The position numbers and the translations under genes were made by a program. 64,000 nt of DNA, taken from a virus. The DNA is taken from IMG/VR virus record IMGVR_UViG_3300009285_001996; one strand, 5' to 3'. Positions 1-48,617 of the stretch are shown here, one piece after another. Numbering within the stretch: position 1 is the first letter of the stretch; the number at the start of each line of letters is the position of its first letter. The notes under the pieces were generated by a model, which saw only the letters and a program-made list of their open reading frames with translations, was not told where the DNA came from and ran no database searches.

Positions 1-104
1 ATTGAGCCAGGAATGGCGGATAAAATTCGCACATTAGTAGAGAGTATGTCTAAAGAAAAAGTCAAGAAATAGACGGAATTGCGTGCGGGTGGGCGCACGA
101 CACC

Positions 105-136
105 ACGGGCGGGGCTTAATCTTGCCCGTTTTTTTT
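105..136 (+). terminator. Rho-independent terminator
   Basis: ACGGGCGGG-gcttaat-CTTGCCCGT hairpin followed by a T run, after an ORF ending near 72. Confidence 0.75.
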
Positions 137-157
137 GTTAAAATTTACAAAGTCCAC

Positions 158-186
158 TTGACAGTTCTAAATCAATCGTCTATAAT
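158..186 (+). promoter_or_regulatory. sigma70-type promoter
   Basis: Perfect TTGACA (158-163), 17-bp spacer, TATAAT (181-186) upstream of ORF 230. Confidence 0.85.
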
Positions 187-229
187 AGGGGCGGAATATA
201 AGTTTTGACTAATTTGCAGGAGAATTATT

Positions 230-469
230 ATGTTAGTAAGTTATGTGCGTAATAAAAAGCGCGAGAAGATTGGGGTGGTGGTTGCAATTTATCGAGATCA
301 GGTTGGGTGGTCACTTTGTCGTACTAAATTAGATAGGTTTGATAAAGATTTAGGGCTGAGGATTGCATATGGGCGAGCAATAACGGGTAGTGCTACAAAG
401 CCGCCAACGACAGTAATGAAGACGTATAACGATATGATGGATAGGTCTAAAGCATATTACAAGTTTTAG
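230..469 (+). CDS. hypothetical phage protein
   Basis: ORF with AGGAG RBS downstream of the consensus promoter. Confidence 0.7.
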   Translation: MLVSYVRNKKREKIGVVVAIYRDQVGWSLCRTKLDRFDKDLGLRIAYGRAITGSATKPPTTVMKTYNDMMDRSKAYYKF

Positions 470-479
470 GAGTTTGACC

Positions 480-875
480 ATGAAAACCTATTATAAAATT
501 GTTAGTAAAGATTTGAAGTCTATTGTGTCTATTAATTTGGACACTCCAGATGAGTATGTCGTACAATATTGTGTCAATAGATTTGTTGAGCCAAAACTAA
601 AAGGCACAAGTCTATTTGTTTTTGACACATTAAAAAATGTAAAACGTTTTTTTAGCCCCCCTTGGGTACATGGAGAACGGTATATTATTTATGAGGCTGA
701 AGTAAAAAATCCGAAGCAAATAGGTTTATTTAGTTCCTATTGTAATTGGGTATATTTAGCAGAATTATTAGAACTTAAAAGAAGTAAAAAGAAGTGGTCA
801 CATAAAACCAGCGTTCCACCAACAGGAACGGTATTTTGTAGTTCAGTAAAGTTACTTAAAAAAGTGGATATATAA
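480..875 (+). CDS. hypothetical protein
   Basis: ORF with AGGAG RBS, tightly packed with neighbours. Confidence 0.65.
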   Translation: MKTYYKIVSKDLKSIVSINLDTPDEYVVQYCVNRFVEPKLKGTSLFVFDTLKNVKRFFSPPWVHGERYIIYEAEVKNPKQIGLFSSYCNWVYLAELLELKRSKKKWSHKTSVPPTGTVFCSSVKLLKKVDI

Positions 876-877
876 TT

Positions 878-1174
878 ATGAAGGGTAATCTAACTAATAC
901 TCTGAATGGTTTAGCGTTTATAATTGGTGTGGTGTTAATGATATTTAAAGTGGGAGGCATAGAAAGTATATCGTGGTGGCTTATCTCTGCTCTAATTTTT
1001 GGACCTTGGGTATTGGTATTTTTGAGTATAGTATTTTTGACGGGGGCGGCGGCGGTTGGGTCAGTTGTAGATGCGAACCCCGAATCCCATTTGGATAGGG
1101 GAGAGATCAAAATTACGGTTGGTGGCAAAGATGTAAGTTTAGAGGAATTGTTGGAAATGTTAAATAACAAGTAA
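878..1174 (+). CDS. hypothetical membrane protein
   Basis: Two hydrophobic segments at the N-terminus. Confidence 0.65.
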   Translation: MKGNLTNTLNGLAFIIGVVLMIFKVGGIESISWWLISALIFGPWVLVFLSIVFLTGAAAVGSVVDANPESHLDRGEIKITVGGKDVSLEELLEMLNNK

Positions 1175-1191
1175 ACGTTGGAGTTACTGCA

Positions 1192-1707
1192 ATGGAAGTT
1201 CTAGGATTTGTGTTGGCTATATTTTTGATTGTATTGTACATTCACAAAGTCGATCAATGCGACCGTCTAAAAGTAAAGTTAGATCGTAATGAGTTTAGTT
1301 ATTTTGTGGTTCGTTTAGTCGAGAGTTTTAGTAAACCGAAAATTATCGGTAATTTACAATGGAGGTTAGAAATGTTATCAGGTAAAATCAAGTTAACTTG
1401 GGTTAAGAGCGTTAGTGCTAATGTCGTTGGGCAACCATTGGTTGTTGGCGTAGATGGTGTAGAGGTAACTATGCCAGCCGAAGTGTTGGCTCCTGAAGTG
1501 GAGTCCTATGAGTTTTTCGCAAAGGAGGGCGCAGCCGTAGAAGTTTCTCTCTGTGCGGATAATGGCTCATTTAAATCAGACCCCGTAACGCTATCATTTG
1601 TAGTTCCCGTACTTGCCCCACCCCAACCCCAAACCAATCTGGTTTATGAGGTTGTGGAGGTTGTAGAGACACCAGACGATCCAGTTCCACCAGCGGAGCC
1701 AGTATAA
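1192..1707 (+). CDS. hypothetical protein (possible internal start at 1372)
   Basis: ORF with N-terminal TM segment; a second GGAGG RBS precedes ATG 1372. Confidence 0.55.
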   Translation: MEVLGFVLAIFLIVLYIHKVDQCDRLKVKLDRNEFSYFVVRLVESFSKPKIIGNLQWRLEMLSGKIKLTWVKSVSANVVGQPLVVGVDGVEVTMPAEVLAPEVESYEFFAKEGAAVEVSLCADNGSFKSDPVTLSFVVPVLAPPQPQTNLVYEVVEVVETPDDPVPPAEPV

Positions 1708-1708
1708 T

Positions 1709-1978
1709 ATGGAACCATTATCTAATGTAGTCTACGACTGTGGGTTATTTGTAGATGAACCAAAACCAAAAGGAATGGCTAAAATAGGAATGAAGATGAG
1801 GGGGGTGGCTAATCTGTCGGTGACTTCTAAATATGATGTTGAGTTGGGCGACGGATTATCGGTTAAACAAGTGGGTGATTCTATAGCTAACTCTCCTGCT
1901 GAACAGATTGCGCTCTTAGTAGAATATCTTAAAGTTAAAAAGGGGGTTGATATTGTTAATTTATTTGTTGTGTATTAG
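1709..1978 (+). CDS. hypothetical protein
   Basis: ORF abutting the previous gene. Confidence 0.55.
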   Translation: MEPLSNVVYDCGLFVDEPKPKGMAKIGMKMRGVANLSVTSKYDVELGDGLSVKQVGDSIANSPAEQIALLVEYLKVKKGVDIVNLFVVY

Positions 1979-1981
1979 AAA

Positions 1982-2062
1982 AGTAAAGTTGATGTAATGT
2001 ATAGTAATGTTACGTTTAGTCGAGTATTGTTTAGTGGAGTGAAGTATATCTGAAAAAGATGT
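1982..2062 (+). repeat. Array A: 5-nt periodic (A/T/C)GT-NN array with 3' hairpin; putative guide ncRNA (orphan copy)
   Basis: agtaa agttga tgtaa tgtat agtaa tgtta cgttt agtcg agtat tgttt agtgg agtga, then agtat-ATCT-gaaaa-AGAT-gt. Confidence 0.85.
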
Positions 2063-2087
2063 TTTGTTTTATGAAAGAAGGTGGTGT

Positions 2088-2402
2088 ATGGACGATATAA
2101 GGTATATAAGAATTGTCGGCGAGGGGGTTGACATTATCTCCAAGGTAGAGTATGATGACCATCAACAGGCGTGGCGGTTGACAAAACCGATGGGTATAAT
2201 AGTTACGGAACAGGGTGTTGGGTTTATGAAATATCCAATGTTTGGTTCTATGCTAATGGTTAGTGGTGGCGATTCAATTTTGATTAAAGATGAGCATATT
2301 TTGTGGATAGAGACTCCTACTACAGAGTTAGAAAATGCTTACAGGGTAAACGTCTTACATGGTATTAGCGTTCCTACTCAGGGATTAGTATTACCAAATT
2401 AA
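2088..2402 (+). CDS. Sm-like-fold phage hypothetical protein
   Basis: MDDIRYIRIVGEGVDIISKV...ILIKDEHILWIETPTTELENAY resembles the small Sm-like proteins common in large myoviruses (recognition only). Confidence 0.55.
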   Translation: MDDIRYIRIVGEGVDIISKVEYDDHQQAWRLTKPMGIIVTEQGVGFMKYPMFGSMLMVSGGDSILIKDEHILWIETPTTELENAYRVNVLHGISVPTQGLVLPN

Positions 2403-2404
2403 GG

Positions 2405-2986
2405 ATGTTGATTGTGTTTGATAAAATCCAAGATTTGTATTGGCAAATTGTGCCCTATGATTGGCGGCTTCGCCAGATCGTTTACCGCTTGCGGTGTTTT
2501 TTCTGGTGTCGGTATACCACAGTAAAACCCAGAACTCTTCCTTACCACACATGGACGGATCGAGATAATTTGCTTGCGCACTGTTCATTTGAGATATTAT
2601 CACGCTTTATTGAAAACGAGTGTTCTCCCGGTAATGTAGATTGGTACTCGGATGATTGTCCGCATAAGATAGTGGTAAACGGAGTTGAGAAATGGGTTAG
2701 GGACGAAATGCAGGAGATTTATGAATGGTGGCATAACAAATATATTAAGGGTCAAAATGACGAAAATGAACGATTGCATAAGGAAATAGAGAAAGTAGAA
2801 CCTATTACATATACTGGTGAAAAAGATGGTCAGTGGTATTGGGAGCCTCAATTTAAGTGTGAGGAAGACGCGGTGGAGTGGAAAGGGTATATGCGGGCAT
2901 TAAGTGATTTAGAGCGTAATATTGAGAGCGAGCTACAGTTAATGCTTCACAGACTCGTTGATATACGACAATATATGTGGACCTAA
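2405..2986 (+). CDS. hypothetical phage protein
   Basis: 193-aa Trp-rich ORF ending LVDIRQYMWT. Confidence 0.7.
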   Translation: MLIVFDKIQDLYWQIVPYDWRLRQIVYRLRCFFWCRYTTVKPRTLPYHTWTDRDNLLAHCSFEILSRFIENECSPGNVDWYSDDCPHKIVVNGVEKWVRDEMQEIYEWWHNKYIKGQNDENERLHKEIEKVEPITYTGEKDGQWYWEPQFKCEEDAVEWKGYMRALSDLERNIESELQLMLHRLVDIRQYMWT

Positions 2987-3022
2987 CCAATTGCCGCTTT
3001 AGATGACTCAACAAGGAATATA

Positions 3023-4153
3023 GTGGGAAGTATCTCAGTGAAAATTTCGTCAGATATAAAATTCGATTTCGACGATGTTCTTATCAGACCGCAACGATCT
3101 ACTTTGATTAGTAGGGCAGACGTTATTTTGGAGAGAGAATTCCAATTCTATCATAGCCCAAGAATTTGGCAGGGAATTCCAATTGTGTGTTCTAACATGG
3201 CGGCTATAGCTGGATTTGAGATGGCTACCGCTCTCGCAAAACACAAGATGGTAACATGCCTTCATAAGTACATTTCCACAGACGACCTTATCAATTTTTT
3301 TGTGGAACATAAAGATTTAGTGGATTATGTGTGGGTAAGTGTTGGCTATGGCGATGATGAAATAGACAAGTTAATAAGGATCACAAAGGAGGTTGGGTTT
3401 CAACCAAACGTTTGTATAGACATCGCTAATGGACACCTAGAATGCTTTGTCCAATATTGTGCTGATATAAGAAATGATTTTCCAGATTCTATTATTATGG
3501 CAGGAAATGTTTGTATACCAGAATCAACACAAGAGTTAATTTTACATGGGTATGTAGATTTGATTAAGATCGGAACTGGCGGAGGAAGCGCCTGCCTGTC
3601 TAGGATGGTTACTGGAGTGGGATGCCCCCAATTATCAGCATTGGATATTTGTGCAAGCGCTGCCCACGGATTAAAGTCGGCAGAGAAAAGGTTGGGGTTA
3701 GTATGTTCAGATGGTGGGTGTAAAACAGCGGGCGATGTATGCAAGGGATTTGTTGCTGGCGCAGATTTTTTGATGCTGGGAGGAATGCTAGCGGGCACAA
3801 AGGAGTGTTGTGGAGAATGGACTACAGAGTATAAGGATGTGTGGGGTTGTTGGAACGAAGAAACGCATACTGATGAAGAATTAAAAAAGTGGAGAAATAT
3901 AAAGAGTCGTAAAAAGTCATTAAAAGTATATGGTATGTCATCCCATCTTGCGCAGGAAAAGCATGGAGTAGGTAAGAAAGACTATCGAGCATCAGAGGGC
4001 GTGGTTATAGAAGTACCCTACAAGGGGAGCGTTGACGATGTAGTACAGGAAATATTAGGCGGGATTCGGTCATGCGCGACGTACATCGGGGCGTGCTCTC
4101 TGAAAGATTTTTCTAAGTGTGGAGAATTTATTCGGGTTTGTAGACAAAAATAA
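3023..4153 (+). CDS. guaC: GMP reductase (IMPDH/GMPR family)
   Basis: FDFDDVLIRPQRS, CIDIANGH, KIGTGGGSACLSR (catalytic Cys), DGGC, YGMSS, YRASEG motifs; no CBS domains. Confidence 0.88.
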   Translation: MGSISVKISSDIKFDFDDVLIRPQRSTLISRADVILEREFQFYHSPRIWQGIPIVCSNMAAIAGFEMATALAKHKMVTCLHKYISTDDLINFFVEHKDLVDYVWVSVGYGDDEIDKLIRITKEVGFQPNVCIDIANGHLECFVQYCADIRNDFPDSIIMAGNVCIPESTQELILHGYVDLIKIGTGGGSACLSRMVTGVGCPQLSALDICASAAHGLKSAEKRLGLVCSDGGCKTAGDVCKGFVAGADFLMLGGMLAGTKECCGEWTTEYKDVWGCWNEETHTDEELKKWRNIKSRKKSLKVYGMSSHLAQEKHGVGKKDYRASEGVVIEVPYKGSVDDVVQEILGGIRSCATYIGACSLKDFSKCGEFIRVCRQK

Positions 4154-4165
4154 GGGAGTATTTTA

Positions 4166-4930
4166 ATGTGCAAAATTCTAAAATCACTCATTTGCTTAAC
4201 TTTAATATTATATAGTTCTATTTTATTTGCACAAAATCAAGTTATCAAAAATATACGGAATTTAACTGTAGGAATTACTGTTGAAACGCCAATGGGGGGA
4301 GCAAATGGTTCTGGTATCCTGTTTTCCTGTAACAATCAAACTTATGTATTAACTGCGGGACACGTAGTTTCTGTTGCTAGAATTATTGGGTTTAAGCGAA
4401 CTAAAACAGAAAGCCAACAATTAGTAGCCTATGCGCCCATTTTTATAGAGCAAATAGTTGATAGCGGTAAAACTAAAAAACTAAGAAAATTTCCAGCAAC
4501 TATAGTGCGTAATGGACTAATACACGATAATCTTGATGTAGCCGTTTTAATGCTTATAGACGTAGATCAAGAAAACAATCTTAGTTTTGATTTCAATGAA
4601 CCAGACATAGGGACAAACACTTTGGGATGTGGGCAGTTGTTAGATAGTGAGTTATTAACTACGGATGGTATTGTTAGTGAAATATATACGACAACTGATT
4701 ATGGTTTTCATCATCAGGCTACAAATAATGTTCAAGGTGGGTTTTCTGGTGGTGGAATCTTTAATGCCGATAACGGTAAATGTATAGGTATAATTACTCA
4801 AAAAACACTTGTAGGATGTGCTTTTGTACCATCTGGTGAAATTCTTAAATGGCTACAAGATAATGAAATAAATTGGTTAGTTGATAATTCTGAACCGTTG
4901 GACAATGTTTTAACATTAGAATTGGATTAG
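4166..4930 (+). CDS. secreted trypsin-like serine protease
   Basis: Signal peptide; LTAGHV (His), LDVAVL (Asp), GFSGGG (Ser). Confidence 0.8.
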   Translation: MCKILKSLICLTLILYSSILFAQNQVIKNIRNLTVGITVETPMGGANGSGILFSCNNQTYVLTAGHVVSVARIIGFKRTKTESQQLVAYAPIFIEQIVDSGKTKKLRKFPATIVRNGLIHDNLDVAVLMLIDVDQENNLSFDFNEPDIGTNTLGCGQLLDSELLTTDGIVSEIYTTTDYGFHHQATNNVQGGFSGGGIFNADNGKCIGIITQKTLVGCAFVPSGEILKWLQDNEINWLVDNSEPLDNVLTLELD

Positions 4931-4940
4931 GGAGATTTTT

Positions 4941-5441
4941 ATGCGGAAACATGAAGTATTCTTAAAGTGGTGGCTTTTAGTTGTGTTGATGAGTGTCGGA
5001 TTTTATTTTGTTTATGCTTATGGTTTGTTTAATGAATTATGGAATAAAGATTTTACCAAAATTACGCTTATTATACTTGGGGGATTTTTATTAACATCGT
5101 TACAGTGTGGCATTAAAACATTTCGTTTAAGTAGTTCTATAAATAAAAAACAATGGGAAAATGTTGCAGAAATAGAGAAGGAATTATCTATTGGTTATTT
5201 CGCTTGTGCCATATTTGTTTCACTAGGTTTATTAGGTACGTTAATTGGTATGGTATACTCCTTACAAGGTTTCGCCACAATTGATGTTAGTAATTTAACC
5301 ACTATTCAAGGTTTAATTCCCAAATTAACTATGGGTGTATCAACAGCGCTCTATACCACTATTGTTGGTGTTATTTGTTCTATTTTGCTAAAACTACAAT
5401 ATTTCAATTTGGAATATATTATTAGGAAATATCATGGATAA
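4941..5441 (+). CDS. MotA/TolQ/ExbB-family membrane protein
   Basis: Four TM segments; LGLLGTLIGM and GVSTALYTTIVG motifs. Confidence 0.8.
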   Translation: MRKHEVFLKWWLLVVLMSVGFYFVYAYGLFNELWNKDFTKITLIILGGFLLTSLQCGIKTFRLSSSINKKQWENVAEIEKELSIGYFACAIFVSLGLLGTLIGMVYSLQGFATIDVSNLTTIQGLIPKLTMGVSTALYTTIVGVICSILLKLQYFNLEYIIRKYHG

Positions 5442-6045
5442 TGAAAAATATAGTGATGGACTTGTATTTTTCGACCTACTATTTAATCTTTTATGTTGTT
5501 TTATTATACTGTTTTCCCTTGCCTATATATTAGTTAATGAACAAAATAAAAGTGATCGCGCCGTAGAAAATACAGCGGAGTTTCTAATTACCTTCATCTG
5601 GGCTAACGAAATTGGAGACGATGTAGATGCCTATGTTGAAGACCCTCTTGGTAATTTAGTGTTTTTCAGGCGTAGAGAAGAAGGGTTAATGCACCTAGAC
5701 AGGGATGATTTGGGTAAAAGGAACGATGTAGTTAGATTGGCTGACGGTACAACGGTAAAGTCTGATGAAAATAAAGAAATAGTCACCATTCGAGGTATTA
5801 TACCGGGGGAATATGTGGTCAACACCCACATGTATTATAAAACGGAAGATAGCGAACAAACCGAAGTTACAATTAAGTTAGAAAAGATAAACCCTAAATT
5901 AAGACTTATTACTCAAAAAACAGTAATACTTAGTGATAATGGTGATGAAAAAACCGCTTTTAGATTTAATATTGATAAAGAAGGCGATGTAACTGGAGTT
6001 AATGAGTTGAAAAAGGATTTGGCTAATTTAACACATCAGGAGTAA
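5434..6045 (+). CDS. single-TM partner of the MotA/TolQ-like protein
   Basis: N-terminal TM with an Asp (FFDLLFNLL) as in MotB/ExbD/TolR; soluble domain DDVDAYVEDP...LDRDDLG; overlaps the upstream gene. Confidence 0.6.
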   Translation: MDNEKYSDGLVFFDLLFNLLCCFIILFSLAYILVNEQNKSDRAVENTAEFLITFIWANEIGDDVDAYVEDPLGNLVFFRRREEGLMHLDRDDLGKRNDVVRLADGTTVKSDENKEIVTIRGIIPGEYVVNTHMYYKTEDSEQTEVTIKLEKINPKLRLITQKTVILSDNGDEKTAFRFNIDKEGDVTGVNELKKDLANLTHQE

Positions 6046-6048
6046 ACC

Positions 6049-6657
6049 GTGGAAACTCTATGGATTCCCCTTGCGTACATTTTATCGTTGACAATCGCTC
6101 TGTGGTTTATTATTGGGTGTCGTGGATTCTGGCTATTAAAAACCGCTATTATTGGTGTGGTAGCATATATAGGAATTTGTATTTGGATTACATTACCAAC
6201 ATTTGAGGGATGGTCAACTAAATCGCCATTACCAGTTAAATTTGAGATTAAATGGGCTGATGTTAAGGAGCCAAACAAAAAAACTGGTGATAATGGCGTT
6301 ATATTTGTTTGGATACAATCTTTGTGTGTTGCAGAAACTAAAACTTTTACTATTGATTCATTGAAACCGTTTTTTGTGGTATTACACCAAAGAGATCAAA
6401 TAAAAGAGCCTCGTTTACATCAGTTGCCTTATTCCAGGTCGGGGCATCAACAAGCGAATGAAATCCAAAACATTATTAAGGATGGTGGAAAGTTTTTTGG
6501 TACGACCAATAAGGGCGGAACGGGGAAAGAAGGACAAAACGGTAATGGAGATGGGAGTAATAGTGGTGATGGTGGTAGTTTAAGCCAAGAGCAAGTCCCT
6601 ATGTTTTATCAATTACCCCCCCCACATTTTCCTGCTAAAGATGAGCACTCAATCTGA
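6049..6657 (+). CDS. membrane protein, third gene of the MotA/TolQ-like module
   Basis: Two N-terminal TM segments, Gly-rich C-terminal tail, AGGAG RBS. Confidence 0.6.
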   Translation: METLWIPLAYILSLTIALWFIIGCRGFWLLKTAIIGVVAYIGICIWITLPTFEGWSTKSPLPVKFEIKWADVKEPNKKTGDNGVIFVWIQSLCVAETKTFTIDSLKPFFVVLHQRDQIKEPRLHQLPYSRSGHQQANEIQNIIKDGGKFFGTTNKGGTGKEGQNGNGDGSNSGDGGSLSQEQVPMFYQLPPPHFPAKDEHSI

Positions 6658-7303
6658 CTTTATATTAGATAAATTTAATGGTCAAACTGGTTATTTTGTG
6701 GATGTTGGTGCAAGCGACGGCTTTAACGATTCCAATACTCTAGACTTAGAGAAAAACGGTTGGAGCGGTATTTGTATTGACGGACTAGAGCGTAATTACC
6801 AATCACTGTTGCAAACTCGCTCGTGTTATTGTGTAAACGCTGTTATTGCAGGAGAGAATAGGAAAGCCGAATTTGTCTGTCAGGGGAAATCTGGTAGTAA
6901 TGGATTGGGTGGTAGTGGTCTAACCGAATTTATGGACAAACCACACCTAGATTTTATCATTCATCATTTAGGCGGTCGTCTTACAACGGTAAAAACTAGA
7001 ACACTGGAATCCGTCCTTCGGGAATACTTCGCCCCTCTCACTATAGATTTTCTGGATGTGGATGTGGAAGGTGCCGCCTGGGAGATTCTGAGAAATTTTC
7101 CGTTTACCAAGTGGCGGTTTTCGTATATTAATGTTGAGGTATCAGCAGAATTGACACCACCACTAACTTCCCTGCTAAATAGATATGGGTATGTAGAATG
7201 TGGTCGTTTTGGTCAGGACGTAATGTTTAAGTATAATAAGGTTAGCACAACCAAAAAAAGGATAAAGTGGAATATGTTCTTTGGTAAGTATATAATAAAA
7301 TAA
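6641..7303 (+). CDS. FkbM-family SAM methyltransferase
   Basis: YFVDVGASDG...SNT, GWSGICID, IDFLDVDVEGA motifs. Confidence 0.85.
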   Translation: MSTQSDFILDKFNGQTGYFVDVGASDGFNDSNTLDLEKNGWSGICIDGLERNYQSLLQTRSCYCVNAVIAGENRKAEFVCQGKSGSNGLGGSGLTEFMDKPHLDFIIHHLGGRLTTVKTRTLESVLREYFAPLTIDFLDVDVEGAAWEILRNFPFTKWRFSYINVEVSAELTPPLTSLLNRYGYVECGRFGQDVMFKYNKVSTTKKRIKWNMFFGKYIIK

Positions 7304-7315
7304 ACCTTATAATTT

Positions 7316-7390
7316 AGTTACGTCAAGTGATGTATAGCGATGTGGCGTGGAGTATTGTATAGTGAAGTTAAGAATAACCGAAAAGGTTGT
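7316..7390 (+). repeat. Array B: 5-nt periodic array with 3' hairpin; putative guide ncRNA
   Basis: agtta cgtca agtga tgtat agcga tgtgg cgtgg agtat tgtat agtga agtta, then agaat-AACC-gaaaa-GGTT-gt. Confidence 0.9.
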
Positions 7391-7392
7391 AT

Positions 7393-7569
7393 ATGATAAA
7401 TGATTTTGTTATCCTATTTCAAGATTTAGAATCAAATATTATTGAATATGAGTGTAGTGTGTGTGGTGAAGTATTTATTGCAGATTACGCATTAGGAATA
7501 AATTTGGATATAAGTTCTGGCGATAGAGCAAGATGTCCCAATTGTGATAGTGTAGATAATTCATTTTAG
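7393..7569 (+). CDS. small Zn-ribbon protein
   Basis: CSVC...CPNC; fills the gap between arrays B and C. Confidence 0.65.
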   Translation: MINDFVILFQDLESNIIEYECSVCGEVFIADYALGINLDISSGDRARCPNCDSVDNSF

Positions 7570-7627
7570 TGATGTAGAGCGATGTGATGCAGAGTGCTGT
7601 TGTGTTGAGAACATCTGAAAAAGATGT
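7568..7627 (+). repeat. Array C: 5-nt periodic array with 3' hairpin; putative guide ncRNA
   Basis: agtga tgtag agcga tgtga tgcag agtgc tgttg tgttg, then agaac-ATCT-gaaaa-AGAT-gt. Confidence 0.85.
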
Positions 7628-7674
7628 ATTGTTTTTTATGTAATGCTTTTAATTTTAATTTAAGGAGTTGTATT

Positions 7675-8205
7675 ATGAAGAAAATTGTGAGTGTAACTAT
7701 TAAGGGAGTTGCTCCACTTTTACTAAATCGCCCATTAACGGACGAGGAAAGTGGTGGTGGTAGCAAAAAGAAAACCGAAATCTTAGCACCAGAACAGAAA
7801 GCTAACTCCGTCAATTATTTTGATGAGGAAGTTGGTTGTTATGTCCCCAATTCAATGATTAAGGCATCACTGCGAGACGCTAGTAAGAATTTTAAGCGTG
7901 GTCGTGGTAATTATGCCAAGACCCTAAAGGCTAAGTTATTCGTGACTCCAGAAAAGATTCCTCTAAACAAACAAACTTTTGATCTAATCGACCGTCGAGC
8001 GGCTAAGCTACCAACTAACGGAGCAATGATTACAGCTTCTCGCCCAAGATATGAAAATTGGGAGTTGAGTTTTAAGGTTGAATATGATGATACAACTATT
8101 GATGACAAAACTTTGAGGGAAATTTTTGATGAGGCTGGTAGTTCAACATGTATCGGGAGTTATAGACCGGAGTTTGGAAGGTTTGAAGTTGTTAAGTTTG
8201 AGTAA
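7675..8205 (+). CDS. stand-alone Cas7/RAMP-like RNA-binding protein
   Basis: N-terminal VTIKGVAPLLL strand, YVPNSMIKASLRDA helix motif, RPRYENWELSFKV, C-terminal Gly-rich loop IGSYRPEFGRFEV typical of RAMP/Cas7-group folds; AAGGAG RBS before ATG 7675. Confidence 0.75.
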   Translation: MKKIVSVTIKGVAPLLLNRPLTDEESGGGSKKKTEILAPEQKANSVNYFDEEVGCYVPNSMIKASLRDASKNFKRGRGNYAKTLKAKLFVTPEKIPLNKQTFDLIDRRAAKLPTNGAMITASRPRYENWELSFKVEYDDTTIDDKTLREIFDEAGSSTCIGSYRPEFGRFEVVKFE

Positions 8206-8224
8206 TATATTAATTTTACCATAA

Positions 8225-8290
8225 TGTCAAGTTAAGTTAAGTGCGGTGTAGTACAGTCTCAGTATAGTCTAGTATACCACAATATGGTGT
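8225..8290 (+). repeat. Array D: 5-nt periodic array with 3' hairpin; putative guide ncRNA
   Basis: tgtca agtta agtta agtgc ggtgt agtac agtctc agtat agtct, then agtat-ACCA-caata-TGGT-gt. Confidence 0.85.
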
Positions 8291-8327
8291 ATGTTTTTAA
8301 CAATATAAAATATTAAATAACAATAAA

Positions 8328-8397
8328 TGTACATCGAAGTCAAGTACAGTATAGTCAATTAAAGTGAAGTTTAGTCTAGAATAACCGAAAGGGTTGT
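8328..8397 (+). repeat. Array E: 5-nt periodic array with 3' hairpin; putative guide ncRNA
   Basis: tgtac atcga agtca agtac agtat agtca attaa agtga agttt agtct, then agaat-AACC-gaaag-GGTT-gt. Confidence 0.85.
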
Positions 8398-8399
8398 AT

Positions 8400-8795
8400 G
8401 TGTCTGATTTAATCACTCCATCAATCTTAGATATTAAAGCTGATATAGAGTATTGGTGGAAACAATTTACTATTAAGTTAGAGGTTCCGTTATCTGAATT
8501 ATTCCCAGAACCAGAAAAGGGGTGGGTAAAACACATTTGGAAACATGGGTCCGCTGATTTATGCGTCTTTCATAGTAATAAGTTAATATGTATTATCGAG
8601 GCGCATGGACACCACCATTTTAGTAATAAAAAACAAATAATGAACGATAAAAGAAAAGCTAAATTATGTCAAATTAACAATATTGGATGTTTACAAGTCG
8701 CAAACAGTGTAAGAGATACAATAGCAAGGAGAAAATGGAGAAGGTTATTGGGTAAATATATATGGAACGATTGTGTGAAGTGTAGTACAGTCTAG
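8400..8795 (+). CDS. PD-(D/E)XK / Vsr-like (DUF2726/DUF559-type) nuclease
   Basis: ADLCVF...IIEAHGHHH...DKRKAKLCQINNIGCLQV pattern; start uncertain (GTG 8400 or TTG 8394); 3' end overlaps array F. Confidence 0.65.
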   Translation: MSDLITPSILDIKADIEYWWKQFTIKLEVPLSELFPEPEKGWVKHIWKHGSADLCVFHSNKLICIIEAHGHHHFSNKKQIMNDKRKAKLCQINNIGCLQVANSVRDTIARRKWRRLLGKYIWNDCVKCSTV

Positions 8796-8848
8796 TTGTG
8801 TATAGTCGATTACTGTGCTGTGATGTGTAGAATAGCGGAAAATGCTGT
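8774..8848 (+). repeat. Array F: 5-nt periodic array with 3' hairpin; putative guide ncRNA
   Basis: tgtga agtgt agtac agtct agttg tgtat agtcg attac tgtgc tgtga tgtgt, then agaat-AGCG-gaaaa-TGCT-gt. Confidence 0.9.
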
Positions 8849-8883
8849 AATTATTTTCTTACTTTTAACAATGGAGATTTCTA

Positions 8884-9270
8884 ATGGCAAGTTTTAACAA
8901 GGTTATTTTGATGGGTAATGCCACTCGTGATGTAGAACTACGGTATATCCCAAGCGGTAAAGCCGTGGCTGACTTATCACTGGCGGTTAATAATCGTCGT
9001 AAGAGTGGTGACGAATGGGTAGAAGACGTAGTGTTTGTAGATTGTACAGTTTGGGGTCGCACTGCGGAAGTTGCTGCGGAATATGTAAAAAAGGGTAAGC
9101 CTGTTTTAGTAGAAGGCAAACTTATTCAAGATAGCTGGGAAACACCAGATGGACAGCGACGTACAAAGTTAAAGGTTGTTGTTGATTCTATGCAATTATT
9201 GGGCGGTAAGCCTCAAGATAACGAAGGCGATACACCAGCAGTTGGTGATGACGACGATTTACCAATCTAG
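8884..9270 (+). CDS. ssb: single-stranded DNA-binding protein
   Basis: [36 protein letters not shown], acidic tail DDDDLPI. Confidence 0.95.
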
Positions 9271-9451
9271 CAGGAGAATAATAAGTGAAGGACTTCGCTT
9301 TACTTATACTAGCGTTAATAGTTATAGTATTGGCATTTAATGCTGGTAAACAACAATCTACCAATAAAGCCGTTATCGAGGCTATACACCAACACAACAT
9401 AGCCATTTGTGATATGAATAGTTCAATAGAAATGTTGGGGGGGTTGAAAAA

Positions 9452-10246
9452 GTGACGCTAAGGCCGGTAGTTAAAATTATGGGCGGGAAAAAACATCTTT
9501 GGAAATGGATAGTCCAAAGTTTTCCGCCCGACTACGAAAACATGGTATATGGAGAATTGTTTATTGGTGGAGGCTCTGTTTTTCTCAATAAAAAGCCTTC
9601 TGGGTTAGAATATATTAACGATATAGACGAAGGACTGATTTCAATTTGGCGAACTATTTTTTATCCAGAGTTCTTGCAACAATTACATTCACTGTCCTAT
9701 AGTGAAAACACATTCAAAGCCGCCTTAATTTATTTATTACACAAGAATAAGGGTTTAATTGAGTGGGCAGTTGCCGAATATGTAAAACGAAGGATGTCTA
9801 GGGGCGGTCTAGGTAAGACATTCGCCTGGTCCGACCGACTGAGGGGCGGCGAACCCGGCGATGTTCATGGGTGGAATACCGCATTGGCTCAATTATCGTC
9901 TATCGCAGACCGCACACAACACGCCCATATCTCCTGCAAAAACGCTCTCGATTTAATTCACGAACTTGATAGTCCGCAAACACTTCTTTATCTTGATCCA
10001 CCATACTTAAAGGAAACTAGAACAGCAAAGAACACCTACCAATATGATTTTACAAATGAAGACCATATAGAATTACTGGAAATTATAATCGGTTTTAAGG
10101 GGAAGGTTTTGATTAGTGGGTACGAGTCAAGTTTGTACGCTAAATACCTATCGGGATGGAGATTAGAGAAAAAAGAAATGCCGAATCACTCTGGACAGGG
10201 AAAGACTAAACAGAGAAGAGTGGAGTGTTTATGGTGTAATTTTTAA
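9452..10246 (+). CDS. Dam-like DNA adenine methyltransferase (D12 class)
   Basis: MGGK, ELFIGGGSV, INDID, YLDPPY motifs. Confidence 0.9.
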   Translation: MTLRPVVKIMGGKKHLWKWIVQSFPPDYENMVYGELFIGGGSVFLNKKPSGLEYINDIDEGLISIWRTIFYPEFLQQLHSLSYSENTFKAALIYLLHKNKGLIEWAVAEYVKRRMSRGGLGKTFAWSDRLRGGEPGDVHGWNTALAQLSSIADRTQHAHISCKNALDLIHELDSPQTLLYLDPPYLKETRTAKNTYQYDFTNEDHIELLEIIIGFKGKVLISGYESSLYAKYLSGWRLEKKEMPNHSGQGKTKQRRVECLWCNF

Positions 10247-11626: not shown

Positions 11627-12265
11627 ATGGTCGAACGAAAATTTGGACGATTTTATGTAGAAGATAATCGAGATAAGAAGTTTAGAATTCAAAAGGTGGC
11701 ACCCATACGAACAAGCCGAACATATAGTAGTCGGTGGTTTGGAGATCAAAAAAATACCAGCGAATGCGTTGGGTATAGTTTATCCCACCTTTTAGAATGT
11801 TCTCCATATAAACAGTGGCTTAATCCTAGCGGTATTTATGATTTCGCTCAACTAATAGACGAGTGGGATGGCGAGTACGATGGTACTAGTGTACGGGCTG
11901 GCCTAAAAGTATTACAAAAGTTAGGTTTTATTAAAGAATACCGTTGGGGTAAGACATTGAATGACGCCGTAAATAGCGTATTAGAGGTTGGTCCAATTAT
12001 TATTGGGGTCAACTGGTATGTAGACATGATGGAAACCGATGGTAAAGGGTTTATTCATGTCGGTGGAGAAAATTTGGGCGGACACGCAATTTTAGTGGAT
12101 GGCGTATATGTCAAAACCGAGAAGTTTAGGTTGAAGAACAGTTGGAGCGACGAATGGGGTAAGGAAGGGCGTTGCTATCTGTCATTTAAGGATTTCTCCA
12201 GATTGATGAAAGAGGAGGGTGAAATTGGATTGGTTATTGAACAAACGGCTAAACCAACATACTAA
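11627..12265 (+). CDS. papain-like (C1) cysteine peptidase
   Basis: DQ..SECVGYS (Cys), GGHAIL (His), KNSWSDEWGKEG. Confidence 0.85.
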   Translation: MVERKFGRFYVEDNRDKKFRIQKVAPIRTSRTYSSRWFGDQKNTSECVGYSLSHLLECSPYKQWLNPSGIYDFAQLIDEWDGEYDGTSVRAGLKVLQKLGFIKEYRWGKTLNDAVNSVLEVGPIIIGVNWYVDMMETDGKGFIHVGGENLGGHAILVDGVYVKTEKFRLKNSWSDEWGKEGRCYLSFKDFSRLMKEEGEIGLVIEQTAKPTY

Positions 12266-42240: not shown

Positions 42241-42521
42241 ACAGCAACAACAACCAGAAGCGGTCATTGCTGTTAAGCATGAAGATTGTGGTGGGTGTGG
42301 AATTATGATCTGGTTTATACTATTTGTTATATAAGTTAATCGCGCATATTGAGCCAGAATTTGAAGATGCCAAGGGGTTATGCACAATTTTATGGCTGGG
42401 TGCTCCAGTTACGATTTTTGTATTAGTATTTATGTTAATAATAGTAATTTTAGGGAATTATGTATTACCAGTAGTGGAGAACTTACTATAACCCAACGCT
42501 AGCTAAGGAGGTGGTAACATA

Positions 42522-44274: not shown

Positions 44275-46200
44275 ATGAAACAAATAGCTATTTTGCATGC
44301 TCATAGTGATTTTAGTTTGCTAGATTCTATCGCCAAACCCAAACAAATCTACAAGCGATGCCAAGAAATTGGAGCTTCAGCTTGTGCGATAACCGACCAC
44401 GGCACCATCTGTGGCAGCGTTCAGTTTAATACTATATTCAAAGATATTAAACCCATAATTGGTGTGGAGGCATATTGTTGTAATAATGTTAGTAACAAAG
44501 ACAATAGGGATTTCGCCCATCTGGTTGTGTTAGCCAAAAATTACGATGGATATATAGACCTATGTAAACTTACTTCAGCATCTAACTTACCAGAAAATTT
44601 CTACTATAAGCCAAGGGTTGATCTAAATTTACTGAGAGCGTATTGTAGGGGAAACTGGATAGCGTTTTCGGGACACGCTGGCTCCCACCTATTTAATTCC
44701 ATATTTGATAATCTTCCTGCCGTTTACAATGCTAGCCTGGAAAGTTCAATCAAAAAGTTGGTATCACCAGATGCGGTTGCTCGCACATCAAAATTAGCGT
44801 TAGAACTACAGGACATTTTCGGCGTTGGCAATTTCTACATTGAAATCCAACTTATCGACGAGTGTAATATAGCAGGGAAAGTAGGGGTAGAAGTATTGAG
44901 AGAGGTTTCCCGCAAGGTTGGCATTCCATGTGTGGCGACCCCAGATTCCCATTATTGTTATAGAAAAGACGCCGTTAACCAGCGTGTACTATTATGCACC
45001 AACATGCACACCACCCTACGGGAAGTCCAAAATAAGATGGTGCGGGGCGAAGATGTGGGAATGGGGGCTTTTTTTCGCACCGACTCTTACCACATTCCAG
45101 AATATAGCGAAATGGTGGCGGCTGGAAATACAGAGGGGGAACTAGAAAACACATTAAGGATAGCGGACGCCTGTGAGCGGTACGACTTAACTCGCCCCCC
45201 TTCTCCTGCTAAATTTCCCACACCGAACGGCATTTCTCCCGAAGAATATTTAACCGAGTTATGTAGGCAAGGTTACAAGGATAAATTACCACTAATTAAA
45301 AAGGTAATGGAAAAGAAGGGATTAACTAAGGAGGATTACGGAAATAGGTTTAGGCATGAATTAGAAGTAATTAAGGAGGCTGGTTTAAGTGACTACTTTC
45401 TAACAGTTAGAGATATTGTACAATATGCTATTAATGATGGACAACTTGTTGGTCCAGCTAGAGGATCATCAGCAGGAAGTCTAATAGCTTATTTGTGTGG
45501 AATTACAAAACTTTGTCCGTTAGAATATAATTTATTGTTTGAGAGGTTCTACAATAAAGCTCGTAAGGGGGCGATGCCGGACATCGACTCAGACTACATG
45601 ACTGGAGAGCATGGTCGGGATAAAGTAATACAATATATTAGATATAGATATGGTAGGGATAAAGTAAGCAATATTGCGACATATGGTAGGATGCAAGGTA
45701 GATCGGTATTAAAAGATGTCCTAAGATCATTTGAGGCTTGTTCGTTCGAGGAGATGGGGAGAATTACGGAATTTATTAGCGATGAGGGCAGTATATCAGA
45801 AAAACTTTTGGAAATGAGGGAGGCAGACAAAGAAAGCGGCGGCGACGGCGAAGCTAGTATTATTGATTACTGTTTAGATACTTATCCAAAAGAGTTAAGT
45901 GAGTGGTGCTATAAAGACGATGATGGTAATTTACAAGGTCCATTAGCTAAAAAATTCCAAGTCGCAGTATCTTTAGAGGGGACTAAACGATCTCAAGGGA
46001 AACATGCTGGTGGAGTTGTTATTTCAGATCATCCACTATCTGAACTAGTTCCAATGATTAGAGACAAGGATGGTAATGAACTAATAGCTGGACTAGAAAT
46101 GTCAGATATTGAAAAAAGAGGTTTAATAAAGCTAGATATCCTTGGTGTTAACGCCCTTAATAAACTTAGGTCTATAGAAAGGTTGGTTAATGAATTATAA
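44275..46200 (+). CDS. dnaE: DNA polymerase III alpha, N-terminal part (PHP plus palm)
   Basis: HAHSDFSLLD, ITDHG, DSHY, GPARGSSAGS, PDIDSD, HAGGVVIS, KLDILG. Confidence 0.92.
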   Translation: MKQIAILHAHSDFSLLDSIAKPKQIYKRCQEIGASACAITDHGTICGSVQFNTIFKDIKPIIGVEAYCCNNVSNKDNRDFAHLVVLAKNYDGYIDLCKLTSASNLPENFYYKPRVDLNLLRAYCRGNWIAFSGHAGSHLFNSIFDNLPAVYNASLESSIKKLVSPDAVARTSKLALELQDIFGVGNFYIEIQLIDECNIAGKVGVEVLREVSRKVGIPCVATPDSHYCYRKDAVNQRVLLCTNMHTTLREVQNKMVRGEDVGMGAFFRTDSYHIPEYSEMVAAGNTEGELENTLRIADACERYDLTRPPSPAKFPTPNGISPEEYLTELCRQGYKDKLPLIKKVMEKKGLTKEDYGNRFRHELEVIKEAGLSDYFLTVRDIVQYAINDGQLVGPARGSSAGSLIAYLCGITKLCPLEYNLLFERFYNKARKGAMPDIDSDYMTGEHGRDKVIQYIRYRYGRDKVSNIATYGRMQGRSVLKDVLRSFEACSFEEMGRITEFISDEGSISEKLLEMREADKESGGDGEASIIDYCLDTYPKELSEWCYKDDDGNLQGPLAKKFQVAVSLEGTKRSQGKHAGGVVISDHPLSELVPMIRDKDGNELIAGLEMSDIEKRGLIKLDILGVNALNKLRSIERLVNEL

Positions 46201-46879
46201 TACATTTTGCGTTTTTGATTTCGAGACAGGTGGAAGAAACCCACATACCTGCGAAATATTACAAATTGGGGCAATTATGGTTTGTGAGCGAACACTAACC
46301 AGACTGTCTAGTTTTACATCATTTGTTAAACCTCATAATATGGACACTGTAGAGGATGACGCTCTAAAAGTAAATGGTATAAGCAGGGAAATGCTGGATG
46401 GATTGAGTGAAGCCTTTTATCCAGAGGTTATTTGGGCAAAGTTTTCAGCGTGGGTAAATAAATACAATAAGAGTAAGGGGGCTCCATCTCCATATAATGC
46501 CCCTATTCAGTGTGGATTTAATACAATAAATTTCGATATGACAATTTTGCGACGTTATTGTAAACTATATGGACCTTGGGATTTAAAAAATGAAGACCAA
46601 AAATTGTTTAATCAAGTGTATAAAATAGACGTTATGGATTTGGTATGGTTGTGGTTCGAGCATTCTAATGCAGTGGAGAATTTGCGATTGACGACCATCG
46701 CCAAACATTTGGGGGTGGAAGAACGGCGATTAGAAAAAGCCCACGACGCTTTAGTAGATTGTGAATACTGCGCTGACATTATAATTGAGTATTTACGCAG
46801 AAGTAGGCTTAAATTACCAAGTATGAATTATATGAAGGATATGTTGAAGCCTAAATCAAACGAGGTTGTCAATGAGTAA
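46190..46879 (+). CDS. DEDDh 3'-5' exonuclease (DnaQ/epsilon-like)
   Basis: VFDFETGG, GFNTINFD, AHDALVD. Confidence 0.88.
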   Translation: MNYNTFCVFDFETGGRNPHTCEILQIGAIMVCERTLTRLSSFTSFVKPHNMDTVEDDALKVNGISREMLDGLSEAFYPEVIWAKFSAWVNKYNKSKGAPSPYNAPIQCGFNTINFDMTILRRYCKLYGPWDLKNEDQKLFNQVYKIDVMDLVWLWFEHSNAVENLRLTTIAKHLGVEERRLEKAHDALVDCEYCADIIIEYLRRSRLKLPSMNYMKDMLKPKSNEVVNE

Positions 46880-48617
46880 ATTTTGTATTGAAAATATTCC
46901 ATTAGATGATACAGATACCTACAAACTGTTAGGTGAAGGTAGAACATATGGAATTTTTCAGTTAGAGTCGCCATTAGGTCGCCACTGGTCAAAACAATTG
47001 TTACCAACTAGCATAAGTGATTTAGGCGCTTTAATCGCCATCTTACGCCCTGGTGCATTAAAGGCTTTATCAACAGATTTTCAAGGAAAAGATATAAATA
47101 ATGATAGAGATTTAGTAGAAATGGCTGTCTGTAAAGACATAGTAAAACGCAATGGTAATAATTATATTTTTGATAGAAAAACATTTGATGATGAAAATTC
47201 TTTATTGGAAGATAGTGGCAGACGAGAAAAAATTACTAAAAAAGTAACGACAGCCTACACCAAAAGTATGACTCAAAGGTTTTGTGACCGCAAGAATAAT
47301 AGGGAAGAAACAACGTATATAGATAAGTCTCTTGAACCAATATTAAAAGATACTTATGGTCAATTGATATATCAAGAGGGTGCTTTACAAATAGCTAGAG
47401 ATATTGCTGGGTTTACATTAGAGGACGGAGAATTGCTTAGAAAAAGTATTGGAAAAAAGCTGCCTAAATTAATGGCTGAATTAAAGGATAAATTTATTGA
47501 AGGTTGTTTGCGTGTTAATAAAGTTAATAAAGAAATAGCAGAAGAAATATTTGGATGGATACAAGAGTCTCAAAAATATTCGTTCAACCAATCACATAGT
47601 ATATCATATTCAATAACCACATATCATACAGCATATTGTAAAACACATTACCCCTTGCAATTCTATTGCGCATACCTCCAAGGTTCCGCTGGTAAAATCG
47701 ACAAGCACGAAGAAGTAAAGGCTTTATATGCGGACGCTAAACAATCGGGAATCGAGGTTAAATTACCAGATTTACGCCACAAACAGGTACTAGCCTATAT
47801 TAAGAACGACAAAGTATATTTTGGGCTATCTGATATAAAATTCGTGGGCGTTTCCGCCCTAAATAGTATTTTACAATCAATAACCGAAATAGAAAATAAA
47901 TTAGAGCAGGAAGTGTGCAACTGGTCGTGGACAAATTATTTAATACACTTTTCCGACAATATAGCCAGTGACACAAATAAAGCCCTAATTAGTGCGGGCG
48001 CTCTTGACTACCTTGGCGTACAACGTCAACAAATGCTCTACGAATATGACACTTGGAATTTGCTGACTAAAAAAGAGAAACAATACATTAAAGAGGGCAG
48101 ACAATATACCGATTTGTCAAATGCCCTTTTATTTTGTTCCCCCACTAAGAAAAATGGCGGTGGGTGCAACGGACAATCTAGGTCTAGCAAATTAACTGGA
48201 TTTATTCAGCAGTTAGCCCACCCTGAACATTCCTTGCAAGATACTCCTGATAAACTAGCATGGTTAGAAGAGAAATATTTAGGAGTGTCGTTAAGTTTTC
48301 GTAGATCGGACGTTGGTGCCCCCGAGAGTAACTTTAGTTGTGCCGAGTTCAACGACGGCGGCGGGAAAGAGTACGTTGTAATGGCGGTTGAAGTGGAAAA
48401 TGTTAAAAAAATTAAGACAAAGAATGGGGATAATCCAGGGGAGGACATGGCGATCTACACGGTTTCCGACAAAAGCGGTCAATTAGAGGGATGTGTCTGT
48501 TTTCCCGATGCCTGGCGAGAATTTGGGGCCATCATCTATGTTGGCAATTCATTGAAAATGCAGGGAAATAGGGGGCGGAAGGGGGGGTTTATTCTGGAAA
48601 AATGCTGGGAAATCTAG
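46872..48617 (+). CDS. dnaE: DNA polymerase III alpha, C-terminal part (fingers, HhH, OB)
   Basis: IPLDD..GIFQLES, LRPG, TYGQLIYQE, YSFNQSHS, FGLSDIKFVG, C-terminal OB fold. Confidence 0.9.
   Translation: MSKFCIENIPLDDTDTYKLLGEGRTYGIFQLESPLGRHWSKQLLPTSISDLGALIAILRPGALKALSTDFQGKDINNDRDLVEMAVCKDIVKRNGNNYIFDRKTFDDENSLLEDSGRREKITKKVTTAYTKSMTQRFCDRKNNREETTYIDKSLEPILKDTYGQLIYQEGALQIARDIAGFTLEDGELLRKSIGKKLPKLMAELKDKFIEGCLRVNKVNKEIAEEIFGWIQESQKYSFNQSHSISYSITTYHTAYCKTHYPLQFYCAYLQGSAGKIDKHEEVKALYADAKQSGIEVKLPDLRHKQVLAYIKNDKVYFGLSDIKFVGVSALNSILQSITEIENKLEQEVCNWSWTNYLIHFSDNIASDTNKALISAGALDYLGVQRQQMLYEYDTWNLLTKKEKQYIKEGRQYTDLSNALLFCSPTKKNGGGCNGQSRSSKLTGFIQQLAHPEHSLQDTPDKLAWLEEKYLGVSLSFRRSDVGAPESNFSCAEFNDGGGKEYVVMAVEVENVKKIKTKNGDNPGEDMAIYTVSDKSGQLEGCVCFPDAWREFGAIIYVGNSLKMQGNRGRKGGFILEKCWEI

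Follow-up and report, generated by a model that had tools for sequence, protein, structure and literature searches.

Among systems known from phages, the closest to the locus reported here is VIPR, a CRISPR-like phage system described in 2026 (10.64898/2026.04.26.720920). According to the published text, VIPR guides consist of 5-nt repeats whose variable dinucleotides pair with DNA, every third target base being skipped, usually at the wobble position (10.64898/2026.04.26.720920); the system binds double-stranded DNA and represses it (10.64898/2026.04.26.720920, 10.64898/2026.04.26.720927), and the SUSP1 filament assembles and engages DNA from the tail end (10.64898/2026.04.26.720927). The targets named there are rival mobile elements, including satellites, prophages, and other VIPR systems; predicted nucleases are listed only in types III and V, which are antiviral and enriched in defence islands; and self-targets are checked against a cut-off of 80% (10.64898/2026.04.26.720920). 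A further text reports that vrRNA-targeting guides score lower on self and defines a solo vrRNA as one with no vipr on its contig or none within 20 kb (10.64898/2026.10.15.759431). Two further precedents concern weapons that adjoin the gene they act upon: the free-standing T4 endonucleases SegG and SegF adjoin and cut the neighbouring gene of relatives (PMC2988022), and in prophage TldR-fliC_P an RNA-guided repressor adjoins an immune copy of the gene it silences (10.1101/2023.11.30.569447).

The present locus shares with the VIPR systems of SUSP1 and of the P. fulva prophage (type II) a phage-borne single RAMP, 5-nt repeats with a variable dinucleotide, a structured 3′ tail, the wobble skip, and an accessory gene beside vipr. 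Its repeat, [ACT]G[TC]NN, differs from GGYNN and its tail is a simple hairpin; a degenerate first position also occurs in the WGT/NN and TGH/NN arrays, which likewise lie beside Vipr-like folds, and the passages on these arrays name no targets or neighbour relation (10.64898/2026.10.21.760802). Unlike VIPR as set out in the published text, six separate guides are interleaved with genes here, and three of them spell homologues of the directly downstream gene at 73–77%, just below the 80% cut-off of the published self check. The accessory protein here has a predicted Vsr-type fold, whereas predicted nucleases are published for types III and V alone; the present system is not placed among the seven published types. 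Solo vrRNAs of F5 satellites and vipr-null SUSP1-like phages are similar in that effector-distant guides act in trans, relatives are targeted, and self scores are lower, but their reported targets are vipr, vrRNAs, satellites, and REP elements, not the homologue of an adjacent ordinary gene (10.64898/2026.10.15.759431). T4 SegF, SegG, and MobE also place a weapon beside a conserved gene and act on the co-infecting relative’s copy, excluding the rival allele (PMC2988022), although by protein-only recognition and proven cleavage, whereas recognition here would be RNA-guided and cleavage is at most possible. TldR is TnpB-derived, reads a contiguous guide, and targets a host promoter (10.1101/2023.11.30.569447); the present system is predicted to use a RAMP filament and a gapped code against a coding sequence that is likely viral. 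Literature searches and the VIPR preprint text consulted gave no account of a neighbour-allele layout or of a link between VIPR and homing, though figures and supplements may hold one.

Genomic setting and repeat arrays

The window, a stretch of 64,000 nucleotides, corresponds to bases 8772–72771 of a 90,938-base virus record that is rated 61% complete; proteins identical to the record’s own are present on a 171-kb contig, and the runs carrying the record’s DNA are labelled as groundwater or soil metagenomes, with no RNA run listed among them. Gene families in the record include DNA polymerase, helicase, primase, recombinase, ribonucleotide reductase, and thymidylate synthase, a replication and nucleotide gene set that, by family assignment, is as in a large phage. 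At 44275–48617 of the window, the DNA polymerase family match is broken across two ORFs with a 229-aa ORF in between, and several homing-endonuclease-like ORFs (35494, 38208, 43055) lie near the split polymerase.

The whole 91-kb contig was scanned on both strands for period-5 runs of xG[TC]NN. Six arrays were found, all on the plus strand and all within 1993–8828 of the window; the scan returned none elsewhere in the contig, and dispersal in this contig therefore spans less than 7 kb. The search for further [ACT]G[TC]NN arrays with AG[AT]A hairpin tails that the initial annotation had proposed thus yields these six. Array A scored 11, whereas no score exceeded 6 on either strand when the contig was replaced by 20 first-order Markov copies. 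The arrays are as follows.

1982–1992, plus strand: possible 5′ extension of guide A, units AGTAA AGTTG (1982–1991) with an extra A at 1992
1993–2042, plus strand: array A, ten in-phase [ACT]G[TC]NN units, predicted vrRNA guide
2043–2062, plus strand: tail of array A, with AG[AT]A start, 6-bp stem, and 5-nt loop
7316–7390, plus strand: array B, 11 units and tail
7568–7627, plus strand: array C, 8 units and tail, no neighbour match
8225–8290, plus strand: array D, about 9 units, one with an extra base, and tail, no neighbour match
8328–8397, plus strand: array E, 8–10 units, two of them irregular, and tail, no neighbour match
8774–8848, plus strand: array F, 11 units and tail

The two AGT-NN units at the 5′ end of array A are offset by one base from the phase of its ten main units. 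Single extra bases in arrays A (1992) and D (8260) shift the 5-nt phase, and consensus-breaking units are present in arrays E and F. All six arrays share the same tail hairpin in one register, with the start, stem, and loop lengths listed for array A. The 36 stem cells are all paired, and the covariation score was reached by none of 500 shuffles, for six sequences from one genome; single hairpins are individually weak (z −1.5 for A), so support for the structure comes from the register shared across the six arrays and not from the stability of any one hairpin. With the tail start as the boundary, guide A is 10 units long, and guides B and F are 11 units long each. Arrays A and C had been said to share one architecture and one hairpin, and this was borne out: their 20-nt tails (7608–7627 in C) differ at two positions, and the ATCT-GAAAA-AGAT core is present in both. 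Contigs from two runs that are not flagged as possible sources of this DNA cover array A without listed differences. A convincing promoter of array A’s own was not found.

The Vipr protein and its accessory gene

The effector and accessory genes lie among arrays C to F.

7675–8205, plus strand: vipr, encoding a 176-aa RAMP, homologue of SUSP1 Vipr
8394–8795, plus strand: vap, accessory gene, 133-aa ORF with a predicted Vsr-type PD-(D/E)XK endonuclease fold

A profile built from the 176-aa protein and six homologues matches the SUSP1 Vipr structure 36pp_D (E 1.5e-23), and in model-versus-structure comparisons by VIA-align, the protein model (pLDDT 84) aligns 138 residues with Csm3 (Z 10.9, rmsd 2.9). 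By profile homology and predicted structure, the Cas7-like gene is a Vipr, and array A thus has the form of a VIPR guide, specifically that of a vrRNA guide of a known repeat variant as judged from its repeats. Other features by which VIPR is recognized are also present. The 176-aa protein is a single RAMP outside a CRISPR locus; array A falls within the range of about 9–16 tandem 5-nt units of GGY/NN or a related consensus; the 3′ tail is structured, in the form of a hairpin and not the SUSP1 pseudoknot; the one-base skip on the wobble position is seen in guide F and in the in-frame self matches of A, B, and F; and the accessory gene vap accompanies vipr. Features of CRISPR-Cas were absent: positions 1–10000 of the window gave no Rfam CRISPR repeat, and indeed no Rfam hit at all, and the nine neighbouring proteins scanned contained no other Cas family and only the one RAMP. 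Since vipr starts 5.6 kb downstream of array A on the same contig, array A is dispersed and not solo under the published 20-kb rule; the term orphan, which had been applied to it, is loose given a vipr at this distance.

Homologues of vap occur in 44 of 160 loci found through vipr, mainly the closest ones. Seven residues, Asp55, Glu69, His75, Gln81, Asn84, Arg87, and Lys88, are invariant in all 25 aligned copies, 16 of which match DUF2726 below its cut-off; DUF2726 has been grouped with Vsr and DUF559 among the PD-(D/E)XK nucleases (PMC3424549). The vap model (pLDDT 88) is nearest to Vsr 1cw0 (Z 11.6, rmsd 3.1, 111 residues), followed by a mitoribosomal chain (Z 9.2), probably not a nuclease, and by the I-Bth0305I homing endonuclease domain 3r3p (Z 9.1). 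Sequence searches against solved structures and a profile comparison with one of the phage’s own endonucleases gave nothing useful. On this structural model, cutting and homing by the vap product are possible.

Likeness of guide A to the adjoining gene

The gene directly downstream of array A carries the site to which the guide was compared.

2088–2402, plus strand: gene for a 104-aa phage protein with an Sm-like/DUF6561-like predicted fold (Atlas leads, homologues), single copy in the contig
2094–2123, plus strand: own allele of the guide A site, codons 3–12, matching 15/20 with mismatches in units 1, 3, 5, 6, and 8

The variable dinucleotides of array A run AA AT AA TA TT CG AT TT GG GA, as first read. 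The 15/20 match reported at 2094–2123 was reproduced, with five exact units and five that are one base off, including AGA against CG. It lies on the sense strand and in frame under a one-base skip. The peptide N-I-K-Y-L-R-I-L-G-E that had been assigned to the guide is a valid reading, but only one of those permitted by an ambiguous code; the full reading is N/K-I/M-N/K-Y-F/L-R-I/M-F/L-G-D/E. Relative to the own protein, the guide would specify Asp to Asn/Lys, Arg to Lys/Asn, Ile to Leu/Phe, and Val to Leu/Phe, together with a silent Arg codon swap; random changes are seldom as conservative as these five (p 0.007). Two of the five tail-proximal units of the guide mismatch the own gene.

Taken over the whole contig, a score of 15/20 is ordinary for this guide: shuffling its units gives that score in 289 of 300 cases, and the contig has a second 15/20 site, at 42328. 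For a match within 500 nt on either strand, p = 0.029 (144/5000), and for an in-frame match in the next gene, p = 0.0017 (unit shuffle) or 0.0033 (letter shuffle). The Sm-like gene ranks first of 155 plus-strand genes, holding the sole site of at least 15 among 27,899 in-frame positions, and when skips of 0, 2, or 3 bases were used in place of one, the top guide A matches included no neighbour match. As a sequence likeness, the resemblance of guide A to the neighbouring gene survives composition correction.

The N-termini of the protein family were compared with the guide using 31 distinct 11-mers from 43 of 49 Sm-like homologues, six homologues not being anchorable. Guide-type residues outnumber own-type ones at position 3 (N/K in 22, R in 3), position 5 (F/L in 12, I in 6), and position 1 (N/K in 12, D in 9), and the first four residues of the guide open two of the homologues. 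The short spacing to Gly-Glu that is common to guide A and the own gene is absent in all 49. No known homologue exceeds about 43% identity, and the protein look-alike clusters with taxa for this gene are 91–100% viral (Atlas leads).

Inside the Sm-like gene, a sigma-70-like site matching 11/12 is found at 2128–2156, starting 5 nt past the guide A site. It was set aside as no better than chance, the contig having six sites of at least 11/12, which is about the number that a hand estimate gives for chance.

Arrays B to F and their neighbours

Two of the sister guides also resemble a downstream gene.

7387–7569, plus strand: gene for a small zinc-ribbon protein, whose codons at 7417–7449 match guide B 16/22 in frame
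8884–9270, plus strand: ssb gene, whose codons at 9040–9072 match guide F 17/22 (foreign viral ssb, 20/22)

For guide B, the zinc-ribbon gene ties in the top two of 155, and without its last unit, the guide scores 14/20 (p about 0.01); its exact pattern had no match in viral contigs. Guide B also has an 18/22 antisense self match at 6606–6637, near the end of a 202-aa ORF, a score reached by 9 of 300 shuffles. The own ssb ranks first of 155 for guide F. A 20-base pattern of guide F, in which unit 6 was left free after its self mismatch had been seen, matched eight viral contigs, and all eight matches are ssb genes, in frame, at 20/22 against 17/22 on self, two of the eight encoding identical proteins and two more near-identical ones. 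Unit 6 mismatches these eight foreign genes as well, and with them every ssb seen. Among the 80 loci found with the phage’s ssb, only 3 of 55 distinct best sites beat the own score; given these figures and the unit 6 mismatches, the foreign ssb genes need not be the true target of guide F, which may be phage or host.

The self scores of A, B, and F are thus 75, 73, and 77%, respectively, and each partial match lies 47–212 nt downstream of its array. Four tail-proximal units are perfect on self in guide B and five in guide F. The test for conservative changes that was significant for A gave a weak result for B (p 0.074), no effect for F (p 0.55), and p 0.0055 for the three guides combined. When neighbour matches are combined over all six arrays by Fisher’s method, C, D, and E included, p is 1.3e-4, and within this genome, the sequence likeness of guides to neighbouring alleles has firm statistical support.

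Search for the target of guide A

The exact guide A pattern had no matches in viral contigs and none in metagenome contigs. Genome contigs gave two antisense matches, in unrelated genes and not in any Sm-like homologue, and these were rejected because they fall within the 1–13 matches expected by chance at 30–50% GC. A pattern mixing self and guide A bases gave two viral matches (16/20 and 17/20), and a 9-unit pattern gave 15 hits that reduce to two independent 18/20 sites off the wobble register; none of these is Sm-like. The best score that the peptides of the 49 Sm-like homologues allow is 15/20, so that none can exceed the own gene. Close relatives of the Sm-like gene were found neither by word search, viral peptide scan, and a search of GenBank phages, nor among 24 virus records to which vipr and ssb loci had led; the word search, the peptide scan, and the 24 records likewise yielded no sister genome of the record. 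The contigs of eight runs, several of which may be the source of this DNA, held no variant allele at the guide A site.

An Sm-like homologue carrying the predicted peptide, which the initial annotation had suggested seeking, was accordingly not recovered from viral, metagenome, or genome contigs. That annotation had taken the joint lack of a better-matching homologue and of significance after composition correction as refuting its reading; no such homologue was found, but the likeness is significant. Its wider proposal, that guides are dispersed beside the gene whose homologue they specify, is partly supported for array A, which lies away from the effector and has a significant likeness to the neighbour; B and F behave alike and F fits foreign ssb genes better, whereas the homologue specified by A was not found. 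Because the known homologues are too distant, lack the Gly-Glu spacing, and are capped at 15/20, the target of guide A, as predicted from its sequence, must be a close relative that is absent from the collections searched or extinct.

Interpretation

We consider it probable that array A is a VIPR guide directed against the Sm-like gene of a rival, the owner’s neighbouring copy being immune. The repeat-tail anatomy, the homology of Vipr, the partial matches of A, B, and F, and the better foreign match of F support this joint reading. From these, we infer that array A is a guide gene. Its vrRNA would be transcribed as part of the plus-strand gene run and taken up in trans by the Vipr whose gene lies 5.6 kb away, and the two together would bind the first codons of the Sm-like gene in a co-infecting rival relative. 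The own copy would escape because it differs at 5 of the 20 bases read, and if the filament starts from the tail end as in SUSP1, the two tail-proximal self mismatches would favour immunity. Guide and immune allele may stay adjacent because a phage in which recombination had parted the two would attack itself. Silencing is the least that would follow at the target, and cutting by the Vsr-fold accessory protein is possible.

A stronger version of this explanation is RNA-guided homing, in which the Vsr-fold protein would cut or nick the rival allele where Vipr is bound, and the immune allele together with the guide would be copied in from this genome upon repair. Consistent with it are the presence of vap in 44 of 160 vipr loci, the invariance of its acidic and His residues, a fold nearest to Vsr with a homing endonuclease in third place, partial matches that lie close downstream of the arrays, and the T4 precedent of SegG and SegF, which adjoin and cut the gene of relatives (PMC2988022). 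However, likeness of fold is no demonstration of activity, vap is also found in many loci without neighbour-matching guides, and the searches yielded no sister genome in which conversion tracts could be sought; we regard homing as possible but doubtful. The same tentative standing applies to its full form, a lytic phage whose Vipr brings a Vsr-type nuclease to the target and whose cassettes beside the Sm-like, zinc-ribbon, and ssb alleles are copied on repair. It is rather unlikely that array A is a relic of local guide birth, templated from an earlier adjacent allele after which the gene changed or was replaced and the target perhaps disappeared. Such a history would fit the spacing that guide A shares with its own gene and with none of the 49 homologues, the family-common residues that the guide has where self does not, and the failure to find a present-day target in the collections searched, but the intact repeat scaffold and tail suggest current selection and no acquisition machinery is apparent. 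Relic and active guide are indistinguishable without sister genomes, and both can hold.

The partial self matches could instead mean that the guide damps down the phage’s copy of the gene next to it, or else a promoter close to the matched site. In the case of guide A, self is the best in-frame match among the homologues and lies at the very start of the gene, the near-consensus sigma-70-like site follows at 5 nt, and guides B and F keep their tail-proximal units perfect on self. Guide A itself does not, its differences resemble a protein homologue and not random detuning, guide F fits foreign genes better, and the sigma-70-like sites of the contig are about as frequent as chance would have it; we judge such self-regulation unlikely. 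That guide A aims elsewhere and matches its neighbour by accident is favoured by 15/20 being the usual best score anywhere in the contig and by the finding having been picked after the fact, yet the first rank among 155 genes, the sense orientation, the reading frame, the conservative changes, and the repetition by B and F make chance already a very unlikely reading. Finally, guides might shut down a host homologue while the phage supplies its own, as TldR does with flagellin (10.1101/2023.11.30.569447). This is plausible for guide F, ssb being also a cellular gene family, but for guide A, the predominantly viral look-alike clusters and an exact genome scan without a homologue leave it an extremely improbable explanation.

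If array A is a guide against a rival’s Sm-like gene as we propose, guides placed beside the owner’s slightly recoded copy of the target gene would suggest that close relatives are in conflict at the level of alleles and that guide and immunity are linked as a rule, and the layout makes the origin and spread of VIPR guides testable. If only repression occurs, the unit would work like TldR-fliC_P, but against a phage; if the accessory protein cuts, it would be a unit like the free-standing homing endonucleases of T4. Paired with a Vsr-fold protein, a phage-borne VIPR could also serve as a compact RNA-guided nuclease that reads a new code. Were homing true, phages would possess in this locus a programmable gene drive that uses a pre-CRISPR effector, and the spread of new guides would be explained as well.

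Occurrence in other VIPR loci

Neighbour matches were sought in two partly overlapping sets of other VIPR loci found with Vipr profiles. In the first set (188 unique arrays), 4 of 645 tests gave p < 0.01, and in the second set (137 unique arrays) 4 of 417, both at the level of chance; in addition, neighbour-matching guides are absent in many loci carrying the same accessory gene. As other loci are at null level, the neighbour layout appears to be a trait of some lineages and not general in VIPR. Of five other VIPR virus records, two (G005 and G002) have dispersed arrays, lying about 12 and 35 kb from vipr, whereas a further five records were without any; the three dispersed arrays of G005 and G002 have no neighbour match (p 0.09–0.6). 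A Vipr 72% identical to the present one (P0003) is encoded on a 5-kb contig.

In G005, a 14-unit GGY array without neighbour match (C1:15435–15504; L201:2436–2505) lies among structural-looking genes 12 kb from vipr. In G002, two [ACT]GT-type arrays follow a 291-aa ORF on the minus strand (C1:124006–124351; L202:2506–2851), about 35 kb from a vipr with GGT-type arrays, and possibly belong to a second, divergent system. A further virus record (L211) holds a relative of ssb (6511–6876) about 6 kb from a Vipr homologue near 12174 (E 1e-15). Long back-to-back runs of AGT-NN arrays with little or no tail between them were seen at L144:5653–6303 and L154:1803–2619, and these resemble the staggered arrays of the VIPR paper.
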